DNA of 64,000 nucleotides from Octopus vulgaris (taxonomy: Eukaryota), in NCBI GenBank assembly GCA_951406725.2, contig OX597821.1, positions 47,492,001-47,556,000 of the forward strand, written 5' to 3'. Positions 3,030 through 62,615 of the stretch are shown piece by piece. Below the pieces are notes generated by a model that was not told the origin of the DNA, made no database searches, and worked only from the letters and a program-made list of their open reading frames with translations. The position numbers were made by a program, and so were the translations under genes. Position 1 is the stretch's first letter. The number at the start of each line of letters is the position of its first letter.

Positions 3030-6000
3030 TTTCAGCTCAGAGCTGTGGCCATTCTGACGCACCGCCGCTTTGCTACTCTGTTATTATTGGGAGCCTCCTT
3101 GAATATGCGGCACTTGGTGAAGAATGGCGTTTGATGTAGCTAACCTCATTTGCATGTCTTGCCGTGAGGTAGGTTCACTGGAAGAGGCCCAGCCGTGATT
3201 TAAAAACGCCCGTATCAACTTTGTGCAGGTTCCTCAAGCTCTTTGGGAGAATATTAAAAAGCTGTGGATCCCTGAAACCCAGGCTGTTGCAGTGAATGGT
3301 CCTGAAGTGCGATGGCATTGCTGAGATCTTTGGCACTATGCAGTGACAACCAGTTCTGGAATTGGTGTAGCTTTCAATGCCAAAAATTTGGCACAATTCC
3401 TTCCAGGATCTTCCAGATGTATATTACTACATACCTCTCCTGCCTTCCCTCTAGGGAGTAGAATCTTGTCTGCTATAGCCTTTCCTAGTAGCTGAGCTGT
3501 GGCAATGAGACAGTCTTTTTTGTGAATCTTCGCTGGATTGTTTCAAGATCCGCTGTTAATTTTACACTGTTGGGTGACCATAGCTGGGTGCAGTAATCCA
3601 GGCTGCTGAGGACGAATGTCCTCCATAGGATCATCATGGTTTCCTTATCTCTGGTTCTGAATGTTATTACGATCCATCAAGCTAGTCGTCATCACTTTGT
3701 CACCTTCCTGGTAATGTGCACTTGGAAAGAGGTATCATTACTCATGTCGAGAACAAGATCCCTCACTGAATTAGGCTCTATAATTGTAATTTCCAGTGGA
3801 TCAGTGTAGCCTGTAAGTTTCATATTCAGTTTTGGACGCTGGTAGCATAGGGCTTAGAATTTTTCAGCATTAAGCTGTATATTATTATCCTCAACCCATT
3901 TGTAAATCGAGTCCAACTCCTACTACAGATGTGCAGCATCGCTGGGTTTCTGTATTTTCTGTGAGACTTTAGCATCGTCTGTGTAGCTAGCAAGGGTGGC
4001 TATCCAAACTGTTGAGGGCATATCTGAGAGAGCCACTATGAAAAGCAGTGGTCCCAAGACAGTGCTCTGTGGAACACCGCTCACTATTTGTGTTTTCATT
4101 GAGGTGGTTCCATTGGCTACTACTGCCTGACTTCTATCTTTCAGAAAGTCATGTAACCACTCTCCAAGTTTTCCAACTATGCCAAAGTTATGCAGTTTGT
4201 TTCATATCATACCATGATCCACTTTGTTAAAAGCTTTTGCAAAATCAAGGTATATTACATCCACACTTGAGTTATTGAGTAACTGCCTCAACACCCAGTC
4301 ATAACGTTGTAAGAGCTGAGTTAGGCAGCTCCTACCTGGTCGAAAGCCATGCTGGGTATCACTCAGCAAGTTATTTTTTTCAATGAATGTGATTAGTTTC
4401 CCTCTGACTATCCGTTCCATGACTTTGCTGATGTGTGAAGTCAGAGAGATAGCTCCATAGTTTTTAGCATCTGCTCTGCTTCCACCTTTATGGATTGTGC
4501 ATATTATTCCCTCCTTCAGCTTGTTTGGCAATCTGACATTTGCAAGAAAGCTCTGGAAGAGAATCTGGAGGGGTTTTGCCAGGGCACGCTTACACGCTTT
4601 GAGGATTGGTGGGAAACCATCAGAACTAGCAGTTGAGTTTGCGTCCAACTCATCTATGTCTAGTAGTATATCTTCTTCGTTAATGTTGATGTATTCCATC
4701 GTAACTGCCTCGCTGGTTACAGGTGCGGCGGCAAAGAAGTCCACTGGTTTGTTCACTTGTCTGTGTTCCAACGGGGTGGTAAAGACACTTTTGAACTGGT
4801 AATTCAGTACCTCACTGATCCTAGTTGGACTGTCTGTGAGGGAGTCATCCTTTTGGAAGAGGGGTCCTATCTTGCAGCATACTGAGGCTGTTTCTTTCGC
4901 GTAACGAAAGAAGGCCTTTGGGTTTGACTTAATGTTTTTTATAACACAGGCTTCTTTGTCTGCTCTCTCCATCGCATAGTATTGTTGCAGGCTTTTTTCA
5001 ATTTCCATCAGTGTTTTTTTTTTGGCAGGATCTTTCACTACTTTTGGGATGTTGGTTGAGTCGATTTGCACTTTCGTCTGTCATCTCATGAGGATCATCC
5101 TCTCCCTTGGAATCTTGTTCCTATTTGTTTTGGCCATGTGCTCTGGGACAAATTTCTGACTTATGGCTTGCAAAACAGACATGAAATATTCTAGTTTCAT
5201 GCCAATGTCTGGTGTGGAGAGACATTTTAGCCAGTCCTGTCTGAGGATCTCTTTTTGATCGATTTCCAGTCTGCTTTGTTGAAGTTCAGATTGAAGAAAT
5301 TTCGGGTGCTTCCTTTAGGTTGTATGTCTCTGGTTGCTTTCGGCCCAAACATAGACAGCTCTATTACGTTGTAATCCGAGACTAATGATAGCGTCACTTT
5401 CACATCATGAACAATGTCCATATTGTTTGTGGAGCAGAAATCCAAAACGTTGTTTGACCTAGTTGGTTTGAGTACAACTTGCTTCATGAATAGGGTATTG
5501 GTGATGTTGAGCAGGGACTCCACCAGTGCTTGCTTGCAATGAATCATTCCTGAGAGCATGAGACATTCAGGCCATTTGACGTTGGCGAAGTTGAAATCAC
5601 CCATAAGAAATATACTTGCGTGGTGTTCCAGTTTCATGAGGATTTCTTTAATTCTTGTGAGGCAATCTTCAAACTTGCGTATGTGGTTTGGAGCATCTGG
5701 TGGGCAATATGTATTGCATATTAATATATTGTGTTGTCTTACGTATACAATTAGAGTATCATATACTAAATTTGAGTACGATAGTAAGTCCTGGGGTGTG
5801 AGGTCATCACAGATGTATACAGCAACTCCAGCATGGCTCATTTCCCTTCTGTCTGTTCACAGTATGGCATAGTTTGGTACGTGTATTTCTGCGTCCTCTA
5901 TATCAGGGCTGAGATGAGTTTCCTCGAGTGCTATGCATAGGGCTTGATTGCATGCAGCGAGGTCTCTCAGGAAAGAAATTTTACTTTTATTATGATGTAG

Positions 6001-6765
6001 CAGGACCCCAGTATTTAGTAAAAATATTGGTGTGATGACTGCAGGCGTTAGAGGAGGCCATCTCATGTCTGTTATCTGTGGTGGTCTTGCGCAGTGGTGG
6101 GCAATGTTCCTTGTATGCGCTTGATGTACTCAGGTCAGCTGCTGCACAATCTTTTGCGCCATGCGCAAAAAAAAAAGACTCTTGCTCATCTGCTGCCTTG
6201 CGCGTAACCTCTGAAGAGCGCACTTCTTTTATATATTTTTTCTTTGCAGACGATTGTTGTCTTTCCTCAGGGAAGTTTTTCTCCTTAAGCCCCCTGTAGT
6301 TTTGGTAGGGTTTCGGGTGAGCAAACCGGCAGTTTCTGCCATCTTTCCCATACCAACATTTGCCTTGCAAATAAAATCTGCAGGTCCTTGAGCGCCTTCC
6401 AAATTTCTTCTTTCCTGTAGTGTTTGGGATAGCATTGGATCCTCCAAATGGCTTTCTGTTTTTTGTTTGGTAGGTTGGGGTTTCGGTTTTGGTTGTTTCA
6501 TTTTTGCCTTTTCCTTTTTCTTCCTTTCCTTCTTTATGTTTGTGTTTGTGTTCTGTTCTTCCTTTTCTTGTGGTAGGAGTTTCTTTTTTCTGGTTGTCCA
6601 ACGGAGTGAGGGCTCCATTCCTTTGTAGGACCAGTTGCACAGAGGGCCTTCTCATTGCTGCTTCCTTGGCTCCCCTATCCTTTTCTGCCTGGGCGTTCAC
6701 AGGGGTGGGGGATCAATTCTTTTGAGGAACCATTAGATCAAAGAGACTTCTGGGTTTTGTTTCAT
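3027..6765 (-). mobile_element. Long decayed CR1-group LINE: ORF1 remnant with CCCH finger, APE endonuclease, reverse transcriptase, 3' tail
   Basis: ORF1 CRFYLQGKCWYGKDGRNCRFAH; APE motifs IALEETHL, MGDFN, NNVLDF; RT motifs ISLTSHISKVMERI, QHGFRPGRSCLTQLL, DVIYLDFAKAFNKVDH, GVPQSTVLGPLLF, YTDD (~3974-3985); multiple stops and frameshifts. Confidence 0.9.
4202..5071 (-). pseudogene. LINE ORF2 segment (N-terminal half of RT)
   Basis: 289-aa open segment with non-LTR RT motifs; flanked by frameshifts. Confidence 0.9.
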
Positions 6766-7764: not shown

Positions 7765-7766
<2 letters not shown>

Positions 7767-8273
7767 TTCAGCAACGTACCAAATTACCGGAGTCATTCTT
7801 GTTGCTTATTTTGATTATATATACATATATTTATGAATATATAGAAAAATGTGCAGATAACATCAAACCAAATTTCACAGTCTTCCCCTTCTACAAGTGC
7901 AAAGACACAATCTCTCCACAAAAACGTTTAAATAAAGAAACTTTTTCATTGAAAAATACAGAATACGTCTTAATATGCATGCATAACCAACTTTTATCTT
8001 TTTACATATTTCAATTCACGATTACATCACTGTGTATAAATCCCCACACTAAACAAGTTTTTCGAAACCGTTTTTTCTCTGTACATATATATTCCCTTCT
8101 CCTTACCGAAAGCTGAACAGTTATCTCCCTAACCCACAACAATAACAATAATAGCGATAATCAATTACCTCGCTTTATTGTTCTACTTGTGAAGTTATTC
8201 GCTCATAAATATCATCACACACATGGATAAAATTTCTTCTTTGGAAAATACATATTCAAATAAGTAAACCATA

Positions 8274-8308
8274 ATATCATGAGTAGCGATAGCGAAACCG
8301 GTCAATAT
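8274..8308 (+). ncRNA. Minimal hammerhead-like motif with A3-U8 core
   Basis: ATATC-ATGAGTA-GC gata GC-GAAA-CCGG-TC-AATAT; lies in a (TA)n-bounded element ~7765-8415. Confidence 0.55.
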
Positions 8309-8481
8309 ATTAAAAACTATGTAAAATGTGCATATTTTCTTTTTTTAATTTCTTACATATATTACAACTCACCACGTGGGGATAGTCGAAATTCCTCCTT
8401 TCTGTTACCACTACTATATATATATATATATATGTATGTATATATATATATCAAAATAAGCAACAAACATATCCAGAGGTA

Positions 8482-8570
8482 ATGTAGTACGATCGTTTCA
8501 TGCAACTCCATTTAATTGAACAATGCAGTCGTTACATCAATTTAAAATGCAGAGCAATCCTCAGCTGCAC
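8482..8570 (-). ncRNA. Minimal type I hammerhead motif
   Basis: Minus strand GTGCAG-CTGAGGA-TTGC...GCAT-GAAA-CGATCG-TA-CTACAT; palindromic stem III; one mismatch in each of stems I and II. Confidence 0.7.
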
Positions 8571-9135
8571 AAAGATATAGGATTTAATTAAATTAGAAAA
8601 GATGGACATATTAGTTTAATTATGCCTAAAATCTCCAAGAAGTTAAGGAGATAGACAAAGAACATGCTGTCTCCACTCCAGCACAGAAGTTACCAAGATA
8701 TCAAAAAGATATACATTATTACAGACTCTGCCAGTCACTGATTTTTTTGTTTTTATGGGGTTAGTTTTAATTTATAGATTAGTTTATCAAATCCTTGTGT
8801 ATCTAAGGCTGAGAGAACAGAGAGCAGTATCTGTTAGGGGTAGGGCTGAGGGAGCAGACAGACTTTATAGTTGGTATAGTCATAAAAATCAAGATTTATT
8901 AGAAGCAATATCATGAAGTTTGGTAAAGGAAAACTTAAAACAAGATGTTAGCTGACAGTTAAGGGGTGAATATTGATTAATTGGTATATATTGGTATTAA
9001 TAAAGGAGTATTGAGGCAAAACAACATGCTAATTATATATTAATATTATAATCTAATCAGTTTTTTATAAGTAGAGAATATGCCAGTATAGTTTTATATG
9101 AGCTAAGTAGGAAATTATAGAGATACAAAAATTAG

Positions 9136-10379: not shown

Positions 10380-11010
10380 AAGTGAAAATATGTGTAAAAC
10401 ATAAAAAAGGGGAAGAGAAATGTCTTCATTTCACATAGTTTTAATATCTTTTTATTAAAAAATATATTTTATTGATTGCAAAATCTCATAGCATGTAGTG
10501 ATATCCAACGGTTTTCACTATTTAAATTAACTTTTCAAGGGACATTGGGAAGTGATAATTCATTGAGACATGGGGGTCACACCATTTCGGATTTCTGGAG
10601 AAGTGAAAATGAATGGAGAAAGTGTATAAAGGGAGGTAACAGGTAGCAAGGGCGGGAAGGGGGGGGACAGCTACTGCCTCAGCATTTTATTGAATATATG
10701 AGAGTTAATTTCTACAGGAAAAGGGAAAAATAAAAATAATTGCAATTTTGAAAAATTGGGGAAAAAGGGTTGTGGCCACAATCAAATGCAAAAGACAACA
10801 CAAATCAGTTGAGAGACTCCTAACAGATGAAAACAGTACTCGGTACATACGACACCAACAGTTAAAAAATGCGGATGACCTAATTGTGATACATGCCCAA
10901 AGCTAGCTGAAGGCTCGGAATTCACATTCCTGCAAGGAGAAATATTTTTGATTAAAACCAACTTCACATGTGCCTCTCAGGACCTGATTTATGTCCTAAC
11001 CTGGTCAGGT
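10380..11010 (+). mobile_element. Penelope-like (Neptune/Poseidon-type) fragment: Cys knuckle and start of GIY-YIG, preceded by a probable inverted pseudo-LTR
   Basis: 10850-11010 translates as TVKKCG*PNCDTCPKL...IKTNFTCASQDLIYVLT; degenerate minus-strand hammerhead-like motif at 10501-10545 (stem I ATGTCC/GGATAT). Confidence 0.65.
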
Positions 11011-11608
11011 TTTTATATATACACATATACATGTAGACATACATATGTTATAATGCTTTTAATACATTTAGGGAAGGTAGTTAACACTTGTTACAAATAT
11101 ATTTTGTCTCCAAGTCAAAAATGCAGTGAAAGCACCTCATTTCTCACCCTGTTGCCCTATATCTTTTCTAGCAATTCTAGATTATATATTGAGAGAATTA
11201 TTAGAATGCTGTGTGTTATTTGCTCTGAGTTTTTAAAGCATTTTATGTTCATATCCTGCTCCAGTGTTGTTGAAATAAAGCATTAGTCAAGTACTGGTTT
11301 CAATGCAATAAGCTAACCTCTTTCACCAATTTTGTAGCTCTGTATGGAATTCTGAGGGAAGGAAATCAATCAAGGAAATTAACCCTAGTTATCAACTACT
11401 ATTAAATTTTCTTAACCTTAATGGAATGTGTATATGCATGCACTATGGTGGTACTGTTGGACAGCATGTATTTTGTTTCTCTTGTTATTCCCTCAATAAA
11501 TTTGCTGACAAAAATTTGTTCCATCTCAGTAACTCATATACCAAAAGAATTTCTAGCATGAAAATATTTTAACTGGAATATTTACTCTCTGTTGTCAAAA
11601 AACATTAA

Positions 11609-20676: not shown

Positions 20677-20900
20677 GAAATAGGGAAATCCGTTGGCAAA
20701 AACAAAAACAGAACAGAGGCGCAGCAAAACAAATCGGACGAGGCTCCAAAGAGCCCATGGCCAAACTGTTTATCAATGTATGTTGAAATAGGGTGGTGGG
20801 TGCGTTGAAGATTTTAACAGGTCAGGCAGTGGTCATTCCGGTGGGTGAGAGCACGGGGTGCGTAGATGTTCTTTGTGACCGAGACTAAAGTTCTGACTAT

Positions 20901-21830
20901 TTAAAGGTTAACTCGCATAAAGTTAGGATAGCTTTCTCCAACACTAAAAACCTCGCCCAGATAATCGCCTCCCATAATAATAGGCTGCTTACTAAGACCC
21001 TATCACCCTTTTCCGGAGGCACAGCTTCTTCCGCTCCCGGTTTAACGCTCAGTAGGAATAATAATAGTAGTAATAATGATATGAGAGCCAGTACAGTGAC
21101 TCATAATCTCAGCTCCAACCAGGGATTATATACTAGGGGTATAGATATAAATAAGGGTGATGTCATTAACGGTAACAATGGCAGTAGTGAGGTGAGCGCA
21201 GCTCGGCTCATTAGGGTAGAGAGTCCCAATAGCAACTCCAGCATCGTTTCCGGCAATAGCAGCACCACGGGCACTAGCAATGACAGCACTCTGAGTGATA
21301 GTGTAGAATCAGGGGTTATTCCGTTAGTTAATAGTGACGTAGTGGAAAATAAAGTAGTAAGCGGCTGCAGTTCTCGCAACAAATATAGTAACAGTAACGC
21401 AGTTCTAATTTCAGAAACTAATCCTAATAGAATAAGGTTCACGTCGGTGAACTCCAAGACCAGAAACGCCGTCTACCAATGCAAGGTTTACACGGACTCA
21501 GATGTCTACTCATATGTCGGGGCCTCATCGTCAAGGTTGGCCTTACGAATCTCCAACCATTACGCAACTTTTCGCGACGTGAATAAATGCCAGACCACGG
21601 GACTTAGCAAGCTAATATGGCGATTGAAGAATACGAACTCAAGCTACAGCCTGGAATGGTCAATTTTGTCGGTGGCCCTCCCATTTGATAGGGGCAGAAG
21701 GAAGTGCAACCTTTGTGTCTCCGAGCTCTTCCATATATTGTTCGCCAGAGACCGGATGGTAAACGGACTTTTACAGTCGGCTTTTCGATGCCCCCATTGG
21801 CGGCGTTATACTTATCTTGCTTATAAATAA
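20901..21830 (+). CDS. C-terminal part of PLE polyprotein: post-RT motif, Ser/Asn-rich linker, GIY-YIG endonuclease with CxxC
   Basis: Frame is open upstream of the ATG at 21081 (KVRIAFSNTKNLAQIIASHN); EN motifs AVYQCKV, YVGAS, RISNH, LSKLIWRLK, LEWSIL, CNLCVSE, CPH. Confidence 0.85.
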   Translation, partial: LKVNSHKVRIAFSNTKNLAQIIASHNNRLLTKTLSPFSGGTASSAPGLTLSRNNNSSNNDMRASTVTHNLSSNQGLYTRGIDINKGDVINGNNGSSEVSAARLIRVESPNSNSSIVSGNSSTTGTSNDSTLSDSVESGVIPLVNSDVVENKVVSGCSSRNKYSNSNAVLISETNPNRIRFTSVNSKTRNAVYQCKVYTDSDVYSYVGASSSRLALRISNHYATFRDVNKCQTTGLSKLIWRLKNTNSSYSLEWSILSVALPFDRGRRKCNLCVSELFHILFARDRMVNGLLQSAFRCPHWRRYTYLAYK

Positions 21831-22009
21831 CGCTTATAAATAATACTTGCACCCGGTTACACTACTTATATGAAAATAGCCCTTGGAAATAAATTTTGAA
21901 AAAGCTTTTTAAGAGAAATATGATTAACCATTGCAAGGGGAATTACTCCCAGGAGACGAATGGGGTTTTGTTTTGACGACGGGGGGTTTCTTTGACAAGG
22001 CATGATTAG

Positions 22010-22210
22010 ACGAACACACGCACACATAAAATATTTTTCTGCCGCCTGACGGATTTTTCAGCAGTGACCATTGTGTAGGGCTGTTTACCAACTGACGGCC
22101 GCGCGATTAAACGTACATACGAACACATAAAATATTTTCTACCCCCTGACGGATTTCTCAGCAGTGACCAGTGTGTAGCGCTTCTTACCAACTTGCGGCT
22201 TCGCACATAT
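22010..22210 (+). repeat. ~110-bp tandem duplication in the PLE 3' UTR
   Basis: acacataaaatatttt...cctgacggattt.tcagcagtgacca.tgtgtag...ttaccaact occurs twice. Confidence 0.85.
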
Positions 22211-22505
22211 AGAACAGTTCACACACACATGTTTCTAAGTAGATTTTGTCCCGCCCCATATAATACACCTAATATTCTTTAAATAGTCAGAACTTTAGTC
22301 TCGGTCACAAAGAACATCTACGCACCCCGTGCTCTCACCCACCGGAATGACCGCTGCCTGACCTGTTAAAATCTTCAACGCACCCACCACCCGATTTCAA
22401 CATACATTGATAAACAGTTTGGCCATGGGCTCTTAGGAGCCTCGTCCGATTTGTTTTGCTGCGCCTCTGTTCTGTTTTTGTTTTTGCCAACGGATTTCCT
22501 ATTTC

Positions 22506-23811: not shown

Positions 23812-24254
23812 TAAGGGTAGAAATTGATATTAATCAATCAAAACCAGTGGCCTAGCATATTTTTTAAAAATCCGAAGTTTAAAACTTTTTTTTACATACA
23901 AAATTTATAGAACTGACCACTAAAAAAATGGACAGCCTATATGCTAGATATAGACGTCAAAATTGCCATTTTCCATGAAGAATGTGTTCTCAAGAAAAAA
24001 ATCAGCAAAAAACCAAAGTGTAAAAATAAGCAAGACAAATGAAAATATACGAAATAAAAAACGATTACCTATGTAATAATTAGTTTCACTTGTTAATATT
24101 TAGGTTTATGGATATGCAAACATCTGCATTTGGAAAATTTCCGAATTACCAAATTATGTGAAGAAAGGGGCTGATTCACATGTGGTGAATTCGGCCCCAA
24201 CTTCCCCAAGGAAAAAGTAAATAGAACTTTTTACTTTTTGTGAACGGACTCACT

Positions 24255-25562
24255 TAACTTTTGTTGTTTAAATGTGCGTGGTTTGAGTTCGAAATGGAAG
24301 CAGGCGTGTTTCCTCGACGATCTCAGATTATATGATATACATGTAATGGACAGTCTACAAACCTTCTCACCTCTCCGTAAAGGCTTGGCTCTGCAGACAA
24401 GTACAGTCTATGTGGACCCTGAAGGTGGGCTAGTCGTCCTTTATGTGACATACAGCAGTAAGGCCTTCAGGTTGATCGGACTCTATGCACCTTGTGCTAG
24501 AGGTTTCCAAACTGATTTTTGTCGGCGCCTAGAGGGCTTTCTCGTGACGTCGAAGACATTAGTGGTATTAGGGGACTTTAACGCTATCGTTGACGCACGC
24601 ATCGATAGTGTTGCCTCGACCGATAGAAAAGTGAACTCACGTCTTGTGGATCTGCTTAAGCGTTTTCAGCTGGCAGATCGTCACAGACTAGACCGTCCGA
24701 ACGTCCCAGAGTGGACTTTGATGAGTAGTGACGCAAGGTTCAAGTCTTATCTAGATAGGATAGTGATAAGAACTAGAGATAAGTCTAGTTTTAGTTGTCC
24801 ACAGCTTGTCCAGGTGTCCTACACTGACTGTAGAATGGTCAAGTGTAGACTGGACATAGGTAACACACTTAAGATAGGACCTGGCTACTGAAAGCTGAAC
24901 AAGTCTATTTTGACTTGTGAGGCATACTGTAGCCGGATTAAGGAGTTAGTGCAGCGGGCGTTAACTGGAGCCGTGGTTAATAACCGGTGGTGGTTCGCCC
25001 TCAAAAGAGCCATTCGATTCGGGTCCATTAGGTTTAGTAAACAACTAAGACTAGACAGGGCTAGAATAGAAGGGCAACTAGTTTAGAACTTAGAGGAGGC
25101 GTTGAGGTTGGGCTCTGCATCTCACATTTTGACGGCGAGAACGGCATTAGACTGTCACCTCAAAGCCAAACATGAGAGGTGTAGAGTTTGGGCTAAAGTG
25201 TGAGCATTGGGCTGTGAGGGAATTAATGTTGCTGGATGGGCCCGTACGATAGAAACCCAGTGTGGCAACGATTCCACAATTAGGTCTCTTGTTGACGAAA
25301 ACGGATGCACGGTCAAGGAGCGGGTCAAGATGTGTGAGGCGCTTTACAGGCACTTCGCCAAGTTGTTTGGGAGGTGAGGCCCTTAGGGACTTCCTGTCTG
25401 GTGGCCCGCATCTCTCGGCTTGAGAGGCTGAATACTGTGAAGGGCCAATCACAGCCGAGGAAGTAATCGAAGTGTTGGGCGAGTACCCCGGGGAAAAGTC
25501 GCCAGGTCTCGATGGTCTGCCCTATGAGTTTTATAAAAGTATGCCAGACTTGTTTGGGCACC
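24255..25562 (+). mobile_element. L1/Tx1-type LINE ORF2 fragment (APE endonuclease to start of RT)
   Basis: CLNVRGL, LIGLYAP, VLGDFN, SYLDRI, GPGY*KLN, KSPGLDGLPYEFYK. Confidence 0.85.
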
Positions 25563-28526
25563 TGAAGGAGTTGATTAAAATTGGCAATAATGTAATAGAT
25601 ACGATAAAATCAACAGCAATAGAACCACTAAATATAACATTGCTAAACCAACTAGCCTATGCTACATCTGCAGTTATTACTGAAGCAAAAGGCATAAAAC
25701 TAAAAAAGAAAACTGCTCAACAGAAGAAAAGACAACCAAAATGGAAAGATAACCTAGAAAAGGATATACAATGCAAGAGAGGTGACCTATCAATACTGAC
25801 CGAAATAAGTAACGGAAACTAGGTCAACCAAAGAAAAGCCAAGAAAATATGTAAGAAGCATGGGATCAAACAAAAAAATGAAATACCTGAAGCAAAAGAA
25901 AACCTAAAGTAAAAAATCTAAGCAAAGGCAAAACAACTGTCACGATATATAAAGTGAAGCAAAAAATCTAAACAAAACAAATTATTTAAAGAAGATGGAA
26001 AGAAATTTTACAGGGAACTCGGTAAATAACAAATAAATGTTGAGCAACCACCAAAGAAAGAGGATATGGAAAATTTCTGGAGTACGATAAGGGAAAATGA
26101 AAAACAACATAATGAAGATGCAGACTGGATTAAGGAACAAGAAACACTCCTGGAAAATAAAGAAGTACAGGAATGTGAAGATATTCAAAAGGAGGAGGTC
26201 ATCCTGGCCCTGAATAAGCCACAGGGAATAGATCGAGTACCAAACTTCTAGATCAAACAAGTTGATATAGATAGAGATATGTTATCAGCATACAACGAAG
26301 TCATGAAAAATCCAGAAAATAGCCCAGACTGGTTGACACGTGGAGTGACATTCCTAATACCGAAAACAAATGACACAGAAAACCCAAAGAACTGTAGACC
26401 AATCACCTGTCTACCAGCAATGTATAAAATATTAACATCTGTAATCACTAAAAGAACATACACATTCCTAGAAGAAAAAAAAAATCTACTACCACCAGAA
26501 CAAAAAGGTTGTCAAAGATGGAGCGATGGATGCAAGGACCAATTGCTGATAAACAAAATGATCCTTGAAGACTGCAAAACCAGGAAAACGAGCCTGAGTA
26601 CATCATGGATCGACTATAAAAAGGCGTTCGATAGTGTACTTCACTCATGGATTCTGAAAGTGATGGAAGAATCCCCAACCCTCATCAAGTTTATGAAACA
26701 CAGCATGAATACACAGGAAACTACGTTGCTGCTGAACCATTCCAGTGGATCAATAACAAGCAGACCAATCAAGATCAAAAGTGGTATCTTCCAAGGGGAC
26801 TCGTTGTCACCCTTCATATTCTGCTTGGCACTGGCACCATTAAGTACCATGCTCAACAAAACCGGGAATCGATATGAGATCAAGAAGAAAAAAGGGAGTC
26901 ATCTGTTCTACATGGATGATCTGAAAATGTACTCAAAAAAATGATGAACAACAAGAAAGTCTACCTGCTATGGTTAAAAAGTCCAGTGATGATATCAAGA
27001 TGCAGTTTGGACTGGAGAAATGTGCAAAAGCCTCTTTCATAAGAGGCAAACTGGCATGTTCTGTGGGTATCCACGTAGATACAGAAGCAAGAATCCGAGC
27101 ACTGGACCAGGAAGAAGCATATAAATAACTTGGCATAGATGAAAGTAATGGCATAAAACATCCAGCAATGAAAGATAAGATTAGAAAAGAGTACTACAGG
27201 AGAGTATGGTTAGTAACAAAAAGTGAACTCAATGCTGCAAACAAAATAGAAGCCATTAACACTCTTGCAGTACCAATTGTAGCTTACAGTTTCAACATAA
27301 TCAACTGGCAGATGAGCGAAACAAAGAAACTAGACTCCAAGATCAGAAAACTACTAACCATGGCTTGAATGAACCACCCCAAAATAGACATGAACAAGAT
27401 GTATTTACCAAGAAGCATGGGAGGAAGAGGACTAACTCAATTAGAATTATCTTACAAAACCACTGCTGTAGGATTAAATACATATCTTGAGCTGTCAAAA
27501 GATCCTCTAATGAAGCTTGTGAACCAGCATGATAAAGTAAAGAAGCTATACTCGGTATACAAAGAATCTGTACAGTTAAAGAAACAACTGATGATGGAGG
27601 AACCTAGAATGAAGGTGAGTGAGAAAGTAACTGAGTTCGCTAAAAGAGTTAAAGGAAGAAATGAAAAAAACAAGCCCAGAAGAAGAGCAAAGAAGAATGG
27701 CTAGAAAAACCGATGCATGGCTGATACCCAAGTAGAGTGAACAAACCAGATGTAGAAAAACGAGACACTCATGAATGGATGAAGAGCTCAGGACTGAAGG
27801 TTGAAACCGAAGGTTTTATCATAGCAGCACAAGATCAAAGCTTGGCAACCAGGGCTTACCACAACAAAATAATGAACGATGGCACTGAGCCGAAAATGCA
27901 GAATGTGTCATGAGCAGAATGAAACCGTGGACCACATCTTAACTGGATGCACAGTGCTTGCAAAAACCGAATATATTCATAGACATGATAGAATAGCACA
28001 ATATATCCATTAAAAGATATGTAAACACTACCAACTTCCAACTTCAGAAAGATGGTACCAGCATAAACCTGAAACTGTGACCGGAAAAGATGATATAACA
28101 GTACTCTGGGACATGCCAATCAACACCGATAAAGAAATCAAGGCAAACAGGCCGGACATAATCATCAAAGATGGGAAGAATAAGAAATGCTTAATGATAG
28201 ATGTGACAGTACCATCAGAGAGAAATGTGTTCATTAAAGAAGTTAAGTACAAAGACCTAGAAATAGAAGTGACCAAGATGTGGGGAATGAAAAGCAGCAT
28301 AGCACCAATGGTGATTGGAGCGTTAGGGCTAATTAAAAAGGGCCTTGATAAGCAGCTCAACAACCTCCCTTGCAGTGTTAATGTGAGAGAACTTCAGAAA
28401 ATAGTGTTACTAGGTTCCGCACACATTTTACGCCGTGTACTCTCCATGAGATGAGGACCTGCTGTAACTCTAGGGTCAAGGGATGATCCCAGTTCAGCAG
28501 AAGACAACAGACCATATTTTATTTTA
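25563..28526 (+). mobile_element. R4/Dong-type non-LTR retrotransposon (RT + CCHC + restriction-like endonuclease), decayed, ending in (TAA)n
   Basis: RPITCLPAMYK, WIDYKKAFDSV, GIFQGDSLSP, YMDD (~26909), YLPRSMGGRGL, CRMCHEQNETVDHILTGC (~27897), ANRPDIII...IDVTVP, KYKDL, IGALG. Confidence 0.9.
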
Positions 28527-36334: not shown

Positions 36335-37666
36335 CCTAGACACCAAAAGCTACTCAATTATTGTTGACCCTACACCTGACATGACATATGTTGACCAGCT
36401 GGTTATTGTCGCTTGATACTGTTATAATAGAAAGCCCTGTGAGATATTTTTTTAGCATTTTTGCAGGTAGAAAACCATTCATCCACAACCTTATTCAACA
36501 AAATAATACAATTTCTGGTGGAGTATAAGCTTTCACTTGAAAATATCTGTGATCAATCGTATGATAATGCTTCCAGCATGAAGGACTCAGAGAAAGGGCT
36601 GCAATCACTTCTTAAAAACATTAACAGATATGCAGACTATGTACCATATGCAAGCCATTCATTCAGCCTTGTTGGAGAAAAGGCTGTGTCTAGTGTACCT
36701 GAAGTTGTTTGGCATCTTGCGGCAGCTATATGTTTTCTTTTCTGAATCTCCTTGAAGATGGAGGATTTTAATCACACAGGGCAATCTAGCCTTTTCTCTA
36801 AGGAGCTTAAGTGTAGCTAGATGGTCTGCACACTATGAAGCAGTCCGGGCAATTAAAAATGATATAGGGATATTTTACACACTCTCAAACACATGTTAAG
36901 CGAAATGCAAAAAATTTGTGCCACAAGTAGGTAAAACTGGAGTATATTGTTTTAATAGACATTTGGGAAGAAGTGAATCAGTAGGCAAAAGGTTTATGTG
37001 AATATATCACCTCAAATTATTCTAATGTTTCTAAATGCATTGTGACAAAGAAATTTGCAGATGGAACAAGTGATAGGGCTTCTTTGAAAGGGGCTGAAAA
37101 GTTTAGGATAGAAGTTCTAAAATCAAGTCTATGACTGCTTGATAATCCAGTTAAGCAAGAGGATAGAGCCGTATGAGCAGATTGCGAAAAGGTACAAGTT
37201 TCTCTCAGAATTAATGAACAATTCAGAATTTGATGAGAACAGTATCAAACTTATAATATTGCATTACAAAGACAATATTGACTACAAATTAGTAAAAGAG
37301 TGTTATCAGTTCAAAGTGTATTTACACCTTTGGAAATCCCGGAACACAGAAGAAAACACAGCATCTAAAATGCAATGCACAGAGGTTCTTCAGCTTATTT
37401 ATGAGCAACAATTAAGTGACGTGTCCCCTAATATTACCACTGCACATAAGCTGTGCTTGACAATGCCTATCACAAGCTGTGAAGCAGAAAGGAGTTCCTC
37501 AAAGCTTTCCTTTGAAAAGAATAAATTTTGGTCTACCATGGCTGAAGAGCACTTAAATTCCTTATGCATATTGTCTCTAGAAAATGACATTGCAAGGAAG
37601 CTCTCATATGACAAAACTGTAAGGGAATACGTTGCTACAAAATACAGAAAAAAGAGTATTTTGTAA
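36335..37666 (+). mobile_element. hAT (ZMYM1-like) transposase pseudogene
   Basis: YSIIVDPTPD..VDQL, DQSYDNASSM, YVPYASHSFSLVG, SLSVARWSA, PITSCEAERSSSKL, STMAEEHLNSLCILSLE. Confidence 0.9.
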
Positions 37667-59979: not shown

Positions 59980-62129
59980 TTAAATAATGAACTCAAAGTC
60001 CAATATTTTCTTTTTCTTACAATAAATGATGAACCATTTTACAAATCCCTTTTACAGTTAAAAAAGAGAATGTTGGGTATATGATTTCTGAGAGGTATTT
60101 CTAATCTGTAACATTTCTATTTTCTGCATTCAAGGTAAAGGTGATCTGTTTATGTGTAAAAGATAAGTGGGTTTTGAAAGGAAATTGTGAAATGTAAGAC
60201 CTTTCCTTAATATCCTTGGAATAAATCTTTCATATTAGGGTGAATCCTAAAAATGGAAACTTCATCAGATTTCTTCTCACAATGGGGTGAATATTCCCAG
60301 TTTACTTGGCATAATAAACAAAGCACTTATTTATCTTAGCTATGACATCAATTAAAACGATATTTCAAGATAAACTTACATTTTGCTTGTTTTAGTCTAA
60401 AGATTTCTCATAGGAATATAATTTATGATAAATTTCTAGGTTTGTATTATTTACATGAATTGCAAGAAATGCAAGGCAAATTTCCTCAATAATGGTTTAT
60501 TAGAAATAGAGAAAAGACAACAAATGAAACATTGTGTCTTCTGTTTGAAAACACTGACTCAGAGTATTTCAGAAATAATCAGATGAAGAAACAATTCAAT
60601 TATCTGTTGTCACATCTCTCTTCTGTGGAAATTCTTTGAGAATTTCAAAATAGTTGGCAAAGGCAAAGATGAGAAAGAAATAAGAAAGAAATGTGTGAGA
60701 GATCAAGGAGCCTAGCTTTGAAGTGGTTGATTACCTGAAATGTTTAAAGAGAACACGAAATGTAAATCCAATAAGCATATTGGACTCTCTGCTTGGTCAA
60801 GGGCTTGGGATGTAATCCTTTCTTTGAACCCACTAGCATCTAATTATTATTATAATAAGGAGCTGCTTTGCCAAAGATTTCTTTGTTAGGTGAGAGTTTA
60901 GAAATCCATATACTAATGCTATTGATTTAGTTTTTACGAAGTATGAACAAGAGGTAAGAACCTGTGTGCATAAGTTATTAAAAATTTTTTTTTCCAAATA
61001 CCTATGGAGTATGCTGAGAAATGACCAGGTGATCATTTCAATGTAATTCTATATTCAATGTATTAAATATCTTACACTATTTGTCAAAAGTGGTGATTGC
61101 AGTTGTCTGCATTACTGAAGAACACCACATTGACTTTGAATGAACCTGTAAGATTTGATATTGTTTGGTGTAGGTTTAATCTTTGTTGAAGAGCAGAGGC
61201 CTTTGAGCATGCATAATAGTTTTGATACCATTATGACTTGTATGACTATACTCTCAGGTGAAGCTGAGAGAGATAATGCAAAGAGATTTAGAAATCAAAA
61301 GGTACAATTTGATGTTGTCAAATTGAATGAACTTAAAGTAGAATTTGTTGCTAATACTATTCAATCAACTAATTATAAGGCTACTGCCATTGAATTGGTA
61401 AGATTTGGTTATCTTCCTTATATTATTGTTAACATTTCTTAAGATACTCTTGTTAATTAACTCTCAGCTTCTGTGAGATTAAGCTACATTTTAGATTTGA
61501 AATGAAGCTCTCTCTTTGTGTTTCTTAATTGTTCTGTATACGCATTTCAAACTTAATTAAACATTCTATCTCATTTAATTTCATTTTTGTGCTCCAGTGT
61601 TTATATTATTGTGAGTATGATTTTTTTTATATAATTTTAGGTTATGCTAATTATTAAATAGTTATCTATTAGCATTATTCTCTACTTTATAATGAGAATT
61701 TGTTTTGTCTGAAGATGTATATTTTAATTCCTAATAAGCTTAAAGTCATTGCAGGAATAGTAGTGGTATTGTAATTTATTGGTACATTAGTATCAGCAAT
61801 AAACACCATTCTGTTTTGTGCTATGCTCATTCAGCTTTGAATTATATCTTTCAGTTTCTAAATTTCTATCTATTATCTCCTTGTACTTTACCAGAGTATA
61901 TAGTAAAATAATGTTAATAATATTGGTATTACTATGTATATTTAAAGGACTCTGATCTTAGATCAAGATACCTCAGTATGAAGTCATTCATTAGCACAAA
62001 CTTTTGCAATCCCATTGATCCTTATATGGACAATAAACAGGAAATTTACTATTATAAAAAAAGGATTCTACATGTGTCTAGCTTATGTACACCAGATACA
62101 TTCAGGAAATACTCTCTGCCTTCTAATTC

Positions 62130-62615
62130 CATATATAGGCCTCATAAGATGATCTGGCTCGCACTCACGTTTTCCTTAACCAAGCCAGATCTTGCCAGAT
62201 CATTCTTAAGTCTAATTGATAAATATTTCCCCATTAACCAATGCTACAGAAAGCTCTTCGACAAAAACCATCTGAAAGTGAGTTACAGCTGTACCTCAAG
62301 AATAATAAATATTACAAAAGGAAAGCCAACCAAACTTATAGAAGTCAAGTGTAGATGCTGGAACACGAATGCGTGACTAGTCATGCAGGACAGAGGTGAT
62401 AATATATTTGAGGCAGAAGTTATCTCTACTAAACCAAACAACTTAAAGGACTACATTGGTATTTGTGGAAGGTAGGTTAAAATATTGTTACTTCAACTAT
62501 GCAGTTACTTCCACAGAAAGGGAGAAGAGGAATACAGCAATATTACTGAGTTCTCTCGAATTTAAAGAGTATGATGCTGATTTTGACATCAAGTGGAAAA
62601 TGGTGAAAGATGTTT
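62130..62615 (+). mobile_element. Decayed Naiad-type PLE fragment (post-RT region + GIY-YIG)
   Basis: IW....FS....LARSFLSLIDKYFP....RKLFDKNHLKVSYSCT; CRC; IFEAEV; YIGIC; frameshift, then EGRLK..Y.N...KRNT...IKW. Confidence 0.8.

Follow-up and report, generated by a model that had tools for sequence, protein, structure and literature searches.

A family of Penelope-like retroelements (PLEs) in Octopus vulgaris carries a minimal hammerhead motif in which the core pair between residues 3 and 8 is fixed as A3–U8. The motif lies behind a reverse transcriptase–GIY-YIG reading frame, and both the 3:8 pair and stems I and II covary across related families. Modelling and analogy with characterized elements lead us to favor, with some reserve, the reading that this is a minimal PLE hammerhead with a fixed A–U pair whose RNA, in intact elements, is predicted to undergo slow, dimer-dependent and probably protein-assisted cleavage after C17.

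A 35-nt hammerhead motif with an A3–U8 core

The window analyzed here is a 64,000-nt stretch of O. vulgaris contig OX597821.1, and it holds a 35-nt minimal type I hammerhead motif at 8274–8308 on the forward strand. A base-by-base reading of this segment in the first-pass annotation agrees with the window letters, and the motif is laid out as follows:

8274–8278, +: 5′ strand of stem I
8279–8285, +: core strand N3–A9, AUGAGUA, with A3 at 8279 and U8 at 8284
8283, +: N7, G in the window copy and A in most family A copies
8286–8293, +: stem II, two G–C pairs and a 4-nt loop (GAUA here, GAAA in one subfamily)
8294–8297, +: GAAA, core strand after stem II
8297–8302, +: self-complementary ACCGGU, predicted to form a 6-bp helix III between two RNAs
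8298–8301, +: palindromic CCGG
8302, +: U16.1 in hammerhead numbering
8303, +: C17 in hammerhead numbering
8303/8304, +: predicted cut between C17 (8303) and 8304, inferred from hammerhead numbering
8304–8308, +: 3′ strand of stem I

No extra base separates A9 from G10.1. A descriptor allowing any Watson–Crick 3:8 pair matched 8274–8308 as the sole site on either strand of the window and gave 0 matches in 300 locally shuffled windows. An Rfam scan of the window at the gathering score matched no family, hammerhead models included.

Relative to the family majority, the window motif differs at two positions, N7 (G for A) and 8304 (A for G). The second creates a C8278·A8304 mismatch in the innermost stem I pair, beside the predicted cut, and represents a G-to-A change at a CpG; the earlier attribution of this mismatch to CpG decay is borne out by a G at the corresponding position in 55 of 58 family A copies. 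Across its length the window copy lies ~9% from the family A majority, compared with a family median of 5.6% (~5% in the related family B). It is a lone diverged fossil that has no intact stem I pair beside the cut; it probably no longer cleaves and would serve poorly as a test substrate. We found no variant at 1% or above at N7 or 8304 in contigs from three sequencing runs labelled as three organisms, a check in which contigs needed 85% likeness and drop rare variants, and in which a fourth run gave 4 contigs only.

The motif lies near the 3′ end of a Neptune-like element

A repeat search in the 2.8-Gb genome returned 2097 first-look candidates, 40 of which were scored, and placed the motif in a mobile element with the following parts:

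7834–8414, +: 5′-truncated PLE copy (family A) with a (TA)n run after it, from genome-wide matches
7847–7986, +: frameshifted remnant of a GIY-YIG endonuclease C-terminus with a stop codon, from tblastn
8355–8414, +: optional tail of ~60 nt, present or absent among copies, both forms ending at (TA)n

Genome matches to the window element run from query base 70, at 7834, to ~8415 with 85–89% identity. The element span first proposed, 7765–8415, thus needs correction at its start, which lies at ~7834, and positions 7765–7820 belong to another repeat. This other (TA)n-associated repeat flanks the element on both sides (7765–7820 and 8451–8700) in opposite orientation.

Family A copies have a common 3′ end and ragged 5′ ends, and some reach as much as 1.5 kb past the 5′ limit of the window element, into an open reading frame. 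Family A locus L236 encodes 635 amino acids in one frame, with a reverse transcriptase match (RVT_1, E = 1.1e-6, narrowly below its cut-off) followed by GIY-YIG (E = 1.6e-6) and, ahead of the endonuclease, the Cys-rich linker CGRPNCGTC, a feature of the Neptune clade. Used as a tblastn query, this frame matched the window element over residues 590–622 and 622–635 with 85% identity in two frames. Two 3′ ends occur in the element, and the hammerhead motif is positioned ~50–110 nt upstream of them; the tail that separates these ends was present in ~28 of the 45 copies at the head of the list, some of which had been retrieved with a query that itself bore the tail. An inverted second copy occurred in 4 of 29 distinct loci (L061–L090). 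Family A therefore displays 5′-truncated and inverted copies, an optional tail and microsatellite targets, all traits of endonuclease-bearing PLEs, and by its sequence anatomy the element is of the endonuclease-bearing, Neptune-like type. The portion of Craig et al. 2021 available to us (PMC8557442) describes Neptune-type elements in matching terms, with a reverse transcriptase, a Cys-rich linker (CxxxxCxxC) and, at the C terminus, a GIY-YIG domain, (TA)n targets, inverted truncated copies, an optional tail and an optional frameshifted ORF1.

Two sister families, D (L230 and L234) and E (L221), show a pseudo-LTR layout with one motif in each of the pair. No fetched family A locus contained a same-strand pair of motifs, and only the 3′ copy was present. 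The 5′ ends of 34 family A copies spread from −5 to −1495, and the way these copies were picked precludes showing starts at the cut. Head-to-head inverted copies were seen in L043, L101 and L160–L176, with junctions only 12–100 nt upstream of the hammerhead, so that each makes up a short palindromic insertion.

Elsewhere in the window, a second remnant from this clade of PLEs, older than the first, lies at 10781–11049 (+) and comprises the linker and the start of GIY-YIG at 58% identity to family A. Frames at 20889–21830 (+) and 61921–62376 (+) presumably derive from endonuclease and thumb pieces of other PLEs, and gave no Pfam match above cut-off. Decayed frames at 4202–6712 (−), 24244–28454 (+) and 37121–37666 (+) come from other mobile elements, and we take them to be fragments of LINE-type reverse transcriptase and endonuclease and the end of a hAT-like transposase. 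A 100-bp unit is present in two copies, 78–86% alike, at 22004–22227.

A3–U8 is fixed in family A

With the family flanks held constant, A3–U8 was found in 450 of 484 exact-pattern copies and a reversed-pattern control gave 0. The remaining 34 copies consist of 23 with A3 and another base at position 8 and 11 with another base at position 3, all of which retain U8; C3–G8 occurred in 0 of the 484. Sampling by DNA or protein similarity, with no core pattern imposed, gave 58 copies, of which 55 have the same pair. An unconserved or canonical core in paralogous copies, raised at the outset as grounds against a rare-core ribozyme, is thus not what the family contains.

The family core reads AUGAAUA, and the G at N7 of the window copy occurs in 1 of 58 copies. 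As N7 = G is a rare variant, the G7-containing search motif initially proposed misses most of the family (53 matches versus 30 in the control). About 10 of 30 loci fetched with that motif were rejected as hammerheads, since they belong to one family in which the match falls within apparent coding sequence and lacks a stem I. Ten core sites vary less than random non-CpG sites among the 58 family A copies (1.4% versus 6.0%, p = 0.0016), a low rate that sits within a generally quieter region from 0 to +80 at 3–4%. The consensus core strand CUGAnGA is not matched by family A, which has AUGAnUA in the 450 copies. The first-pass annotation had proposed a natural rare-core family that searches requiring CUGAnGA would miss; the naturally fixed A3–U8 core and its escape from such searches hold, but a free-standing ribozyme family does not, as the motif belongs to the known PLE minimal hammerheads.

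Covariation and core states across related families

We compared 16 representatives across related families, hand-chosen from pattern hits that required a Watson–Crick 3:8 pair and related to each other. The 3:8 pair is Watson–Crick in 16 of 16 (A–U in 8, G–C in 4 and U–A in 4), a figure that overstates the number of independent events (~3–4) because the set is pattern-selected and related. Stems I and II covary across the set, with 5 of 6 stem I pairs changing on both sides. Paired cells reach 90.9% compared with 26–43% for slid partners, and 0 of 500 shuffles reach the observed score. Residues U4, G5, A6, A9, G10.1, C11.1, GAAA and CCGGU are invariant while the flanks differ, as are G12, A13, A14, A15.1–U16.1 and ACCGGU (16 of 16); G10.1 directly follows A9 in all 16, and at residue 17 only C, A and U occur. 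This covariation upholds the initial argument that the core pair is not a product of random decay. In purine-3 families residue 17 never complements residue 3, being C or A with A3 and A with G3. U3 occurs with A17 in family D and one form of family F, where the predicted fold traps a U3–A17 pair. Few independent lineages underlie this pattern at residues 3 and 17.

A3–U8 recurs on different stems. Subfamily A′ has stem I changed on both sides and N7 changed and keeps A3–U8. In family B both stems are different, stem II taking at least four forms, residue 17 is A, and the core pair is once more A3–U8. A family B pattern excluding the GC stem II gave 250 matches (control 0), some of which are decayed family A copies. 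In one family B size class with positions 3, 7 and 8 left free, 41 of 45 copies are A–U, 1 is G–C and 3 are mismatched.

Among motifs with the CCGG palindrome, the commonest 3:8 state in the genome is U3–A8 with 5255 matches (control 0), followed by A3–U8 with 700 and by G3–C8 with 124 (control 16) in families sharing flanks with B, all three counted with stricter patterns than the canonical core, which gave 200 matches (control 36), mostly from one ~359-bp tandem repeat. That repeat (L134–L159, L281 and L288) has a canonical hammerhead in each unit and is retrozyme-like; copies related to it carry U3–A8, a separate C–G to U–A switch. Among 20 canonical-core loci fetched we found no close C3–G8 sister with a matching frame, and no intact or young A3–U8 element was found among 142 scored of 21623 candidates. 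Families D and E, recovered by protein search, are young, with intact frames of 753–785 amino acids and copies 97–99% alike, and both have U3–A8.

Apparent core switches in single copies of U3–A8 families (L101 to A3–U8 and L243 to C3–G8) were not counted, since pattern searching had singled them out among thousands of copies. A metagenome scan gave 16 matches; all of them lacked a PLE frame and 15 had a stem I of 0–2 pairs, and these were taken as chance.

Families D and E also contain an upstream frame of ~340–410 amino acids counted from the first Met (L230:1014–2327 and L221:786–1889, both +), for which Pfam gave no match in L230. Six T followed by AG stand at or just before the reverse transcriptase frame start in both families and resemble a −1 frameshift site; a frameshifted ORF1 is described for some PLEs in the part of PMC8557442 available. 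In young family E, the U3–A8 hammerhead at L220:5212–5250 is one U shorter after the palindrome than in the older L235 (−, ~5245), so that it either has no residue 17 or requires GAAA to hold one more A. Family E spread recently despite the shortened U run in L220.

Evolutionary route to the A3–U8 core

In a DNA tree with the core masked, the family B copies with A3–U8 form one clade (support 95/95) nested within G3–C8 families. The accepted tree uses reference-anchored columns and is limited to rows of 420 bases or more, 24 of the 47. A first tree of the same groups (38 of 50 rows, untrimmed) rejected a single A3–U8 clade (p-AU 6e-7) and is less trusted, since its short rows clustered together whatever their family, an effect that probably stems from unrelated flanks. 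Family B copies with A3 have four flanking diagnostic sites in common, and compared with the closest G3–C8 sister, 2 of 6 diagnostic differences are the 3:8 partners themselves; the chance of 2 of 6 falling on one named pair is ~1e-4, a post hoc value for groups defined by their core. Two family B copies, L105 and L112, have C at column +5 though the motif reads U8, probably a misalignment at an upstream duplication.

The nesting of the A3–U8 clade within G3–C8 families points to a route from G–C and not from C–G, and we infer that, at least in family B, A–U arose from G–C by two transitions through a G·U wobble. No amplified G·U wobble subfamily was seen among the families recovered. A protein tree (34 of 85 rows) supports five families well on a weak backbone (87/78 and 88/62) and does not reject a single origin of purine-3 cores (p-AU 0.104). 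The A3–U8 of the window's family may descend from a purine-3 ancestor shared with B and its G3–C8 relatives or may have risen separately from U3–A8. The change from C3–G8 implied by the first-pass annotation needs correction; since the family has no C3–G8 copy and its nearest relatives are U3–A8 or G3–C8, C3–G8 is probably not the direct ancestral state.

Predicted fold and the case for cleavage

Folding calculations suggest that two RNAs are needed to assemble the motif. In a lone L072 copy, closure of helix III is predicted to cost +3.5 kcal/mol. In cofolded pairs of L072 (−13.3 kcal/mol) and of L128 (−15.1 kcal/mol), a double hammerhead joined by the 6-bp ACCGGU helix is the predicted minimum-energy state. 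In the window copy, breakage of the stem I pair beside the cut puts the double hammerhead 6.8 kcal/mol above the minimum. Stem II has only 2 bp, and a loop–loop contact is not evident.

We propose that two element RNAs would pair through their ACCGGU palindromes into a double hammerhead, and that RNA from intact elements would be cut slowly after C17, probably with help from the element's protein. The general acid would be the 2′-OH of residue 8 and not its base, as the known mechanism suggests; G8 acts through its 2′-OH (PMC2920678; PMC6257768). Since the 2′-OH does the chemistry, any Watson–Crick 3:8 pair could hold residue 8 in place. PLE minimal hammerheads cleave weakly as dimers according to the accessible text of PMC4209133, and the Anolis PLE hammerhead needs its element's protein and is partly rescued by a G3–C8 pair in the accessible text of PMC11167929. 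Set against cleavage in intact elements is the finding that all A3–U8 families seen are old and broken, while the young families D and E use U3–A8, as is the lack of a same-strand motif pair in the fetched family A loci.

The rival that survives best is that the fold was kept for a role other than cutting, such as protein binding, RNA dimerization or placement of the reverse-transcription start, with negligible cleavage. We judge this unlikely, though it deserves serious weight. Cleavage of the Anolis element is dispensable in vitro, where hammerhead-dead mutants do not reduce insertion, and no RNA ends were found at the cut, at least in the sections of PMC11167929 at hand; the activity of PLE minimal hammerheads is very low in the corresponding sections of PMC4209133, and the octopus motif sits close upstream of both 3′ ends. 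A purely structural role fits less well with the 3:8 pair itself, which belongs to the active conformation and is absent from ground-state minimal structures in the accessible part of PMC3884650, and retention of that pair through several base swaps, with G12, A13 and A14 unchanged and residue 17 never G across the 16 representatives, is the prediction of selection on catalysis.

Drift offers a still less probable account, in which the ribozyme was already dispensable, A–U came from G–C by AT-biased mutation and families spread with a dying motif. Both G–C to A–U changes are transitions towards A/T, 3 of 4 flanking diagnostic changes in family B are also C to A or T, the age distribution of A3–U8 and U3–A8 families runs in the same direction, and Naiads spread without canonical hammerheads in the available portion of PMC8557442. 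Against this, A3–U8 survives several subfamilies with changed stems (A, A′ and B) with the other core bases intact, single 3:8 mismatches are rare (34 of 484 in A and 3 of 45 in B), and the post hoc concentration of diagnostic differences on the 3:8 partners is hard to obtain by chance. That the motif resembles a hammerhead by chance, or is one canonical hammerhead in decay, would fit its shortness and AT-rich composition, the lack of an Rfam match and the narrow margin of the G7-containing motif over its control. Both readings are excluded to near certainty by 450 exact copies versus 0 in the control, by the lack of any C3–G8 copy among the 484, by the covarying stems and by the fixed position behind a PLE frame.

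Relation to known hammerheads

Two extended type III ribozymes reportedly still cleave with any Watson–Crick pair at 3:8, although pyrimidine–purine is preferred to a degree that depends on context (Przybilski and Hammann 2007). Those variants were engineered and stabilized by tertiary contacts, whereas the octopus motif is natural. Very many PLE hammerheads with a short stem III are said to cleave as dimers (Lunse, Weinberg and Breaker 2017).

The octopus motif is closest to the min-HHR of Cervera and De la Pena 2014 (PMC4209133), which, as far as the available text describes, is likewise type I with a short stem I, G10.1–C11.1, an NUH site and a palindromic, dimer-requiring helix III, and lies at the end of an RT–GIY-YIG element known mostly from solitary truncated copies. 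It differs in having a C3–G8 core, with U3–A8 in Schistosoma as the sole core variant in that text, as well as an extra base between A9 and G10.1 and a long stem II, where the octopus motif lacks the extra base and has a 2-bp stem II. Natural U3–A8 hammerheads (Perreault et al. 2011; PMC3088659, accessible part) provide a precedent for compensatory 3:8 change, but keep the pyrimidine–purine order that is reversed in A3–U8. The Anolis Poseidon element PAc (Frangieh et al. 2024; PMC11167929, accessible part) has a hammerhead near its tail as in octopus, with a natural C3–G8 core; the reversed G3–C8 was engineered, and A3–U8 falls outside that study.

PLE hammerheads, natural U3–A8 and laboratory tolerance of other pairs are thus already known. 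No natural A3–U8 core appeared in the literature searched, which did not reach the largest survey of PLE hammerheads (Lunse et al. 2017) or one supplement of PMC4209133. It is likewise absent from the accessible portions of PMC6765202, PMC6155905, PMC11014351, PMC2837043, PMC10085705 and bioRxiv 10.64898/2026.07.22.740005.

Implications

From the modelled fold and analogy with known elements, the proposal that A3–U8 was a working natural core, with this PLE clade passing through U–A, G–C and A–U states while active, and with A–U arising from G–C via a wobble and perhaps again in the window's family, stands in our view at an even balance. The family B lineages, in which G–C and A–U occur within the same stems, provide natural, phylogenetically ordered pairs of near-identical ribozymes differing at 3:8, and offer an immediate way to ask whether selection on PLE hammerheads acts on cutting. 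The contrast between the canonical and the three other core counts points to a descriptor undercount: if the proposal is true, counts based on CUGAnGA would miss ~30 of every 31 hammerheads of the CCGG-palindrome class in the octopus genome, and a natural 35-nt motif that has a stem II of 2 bp and lacks tertiary contacts would be working with an A3–U8 core.
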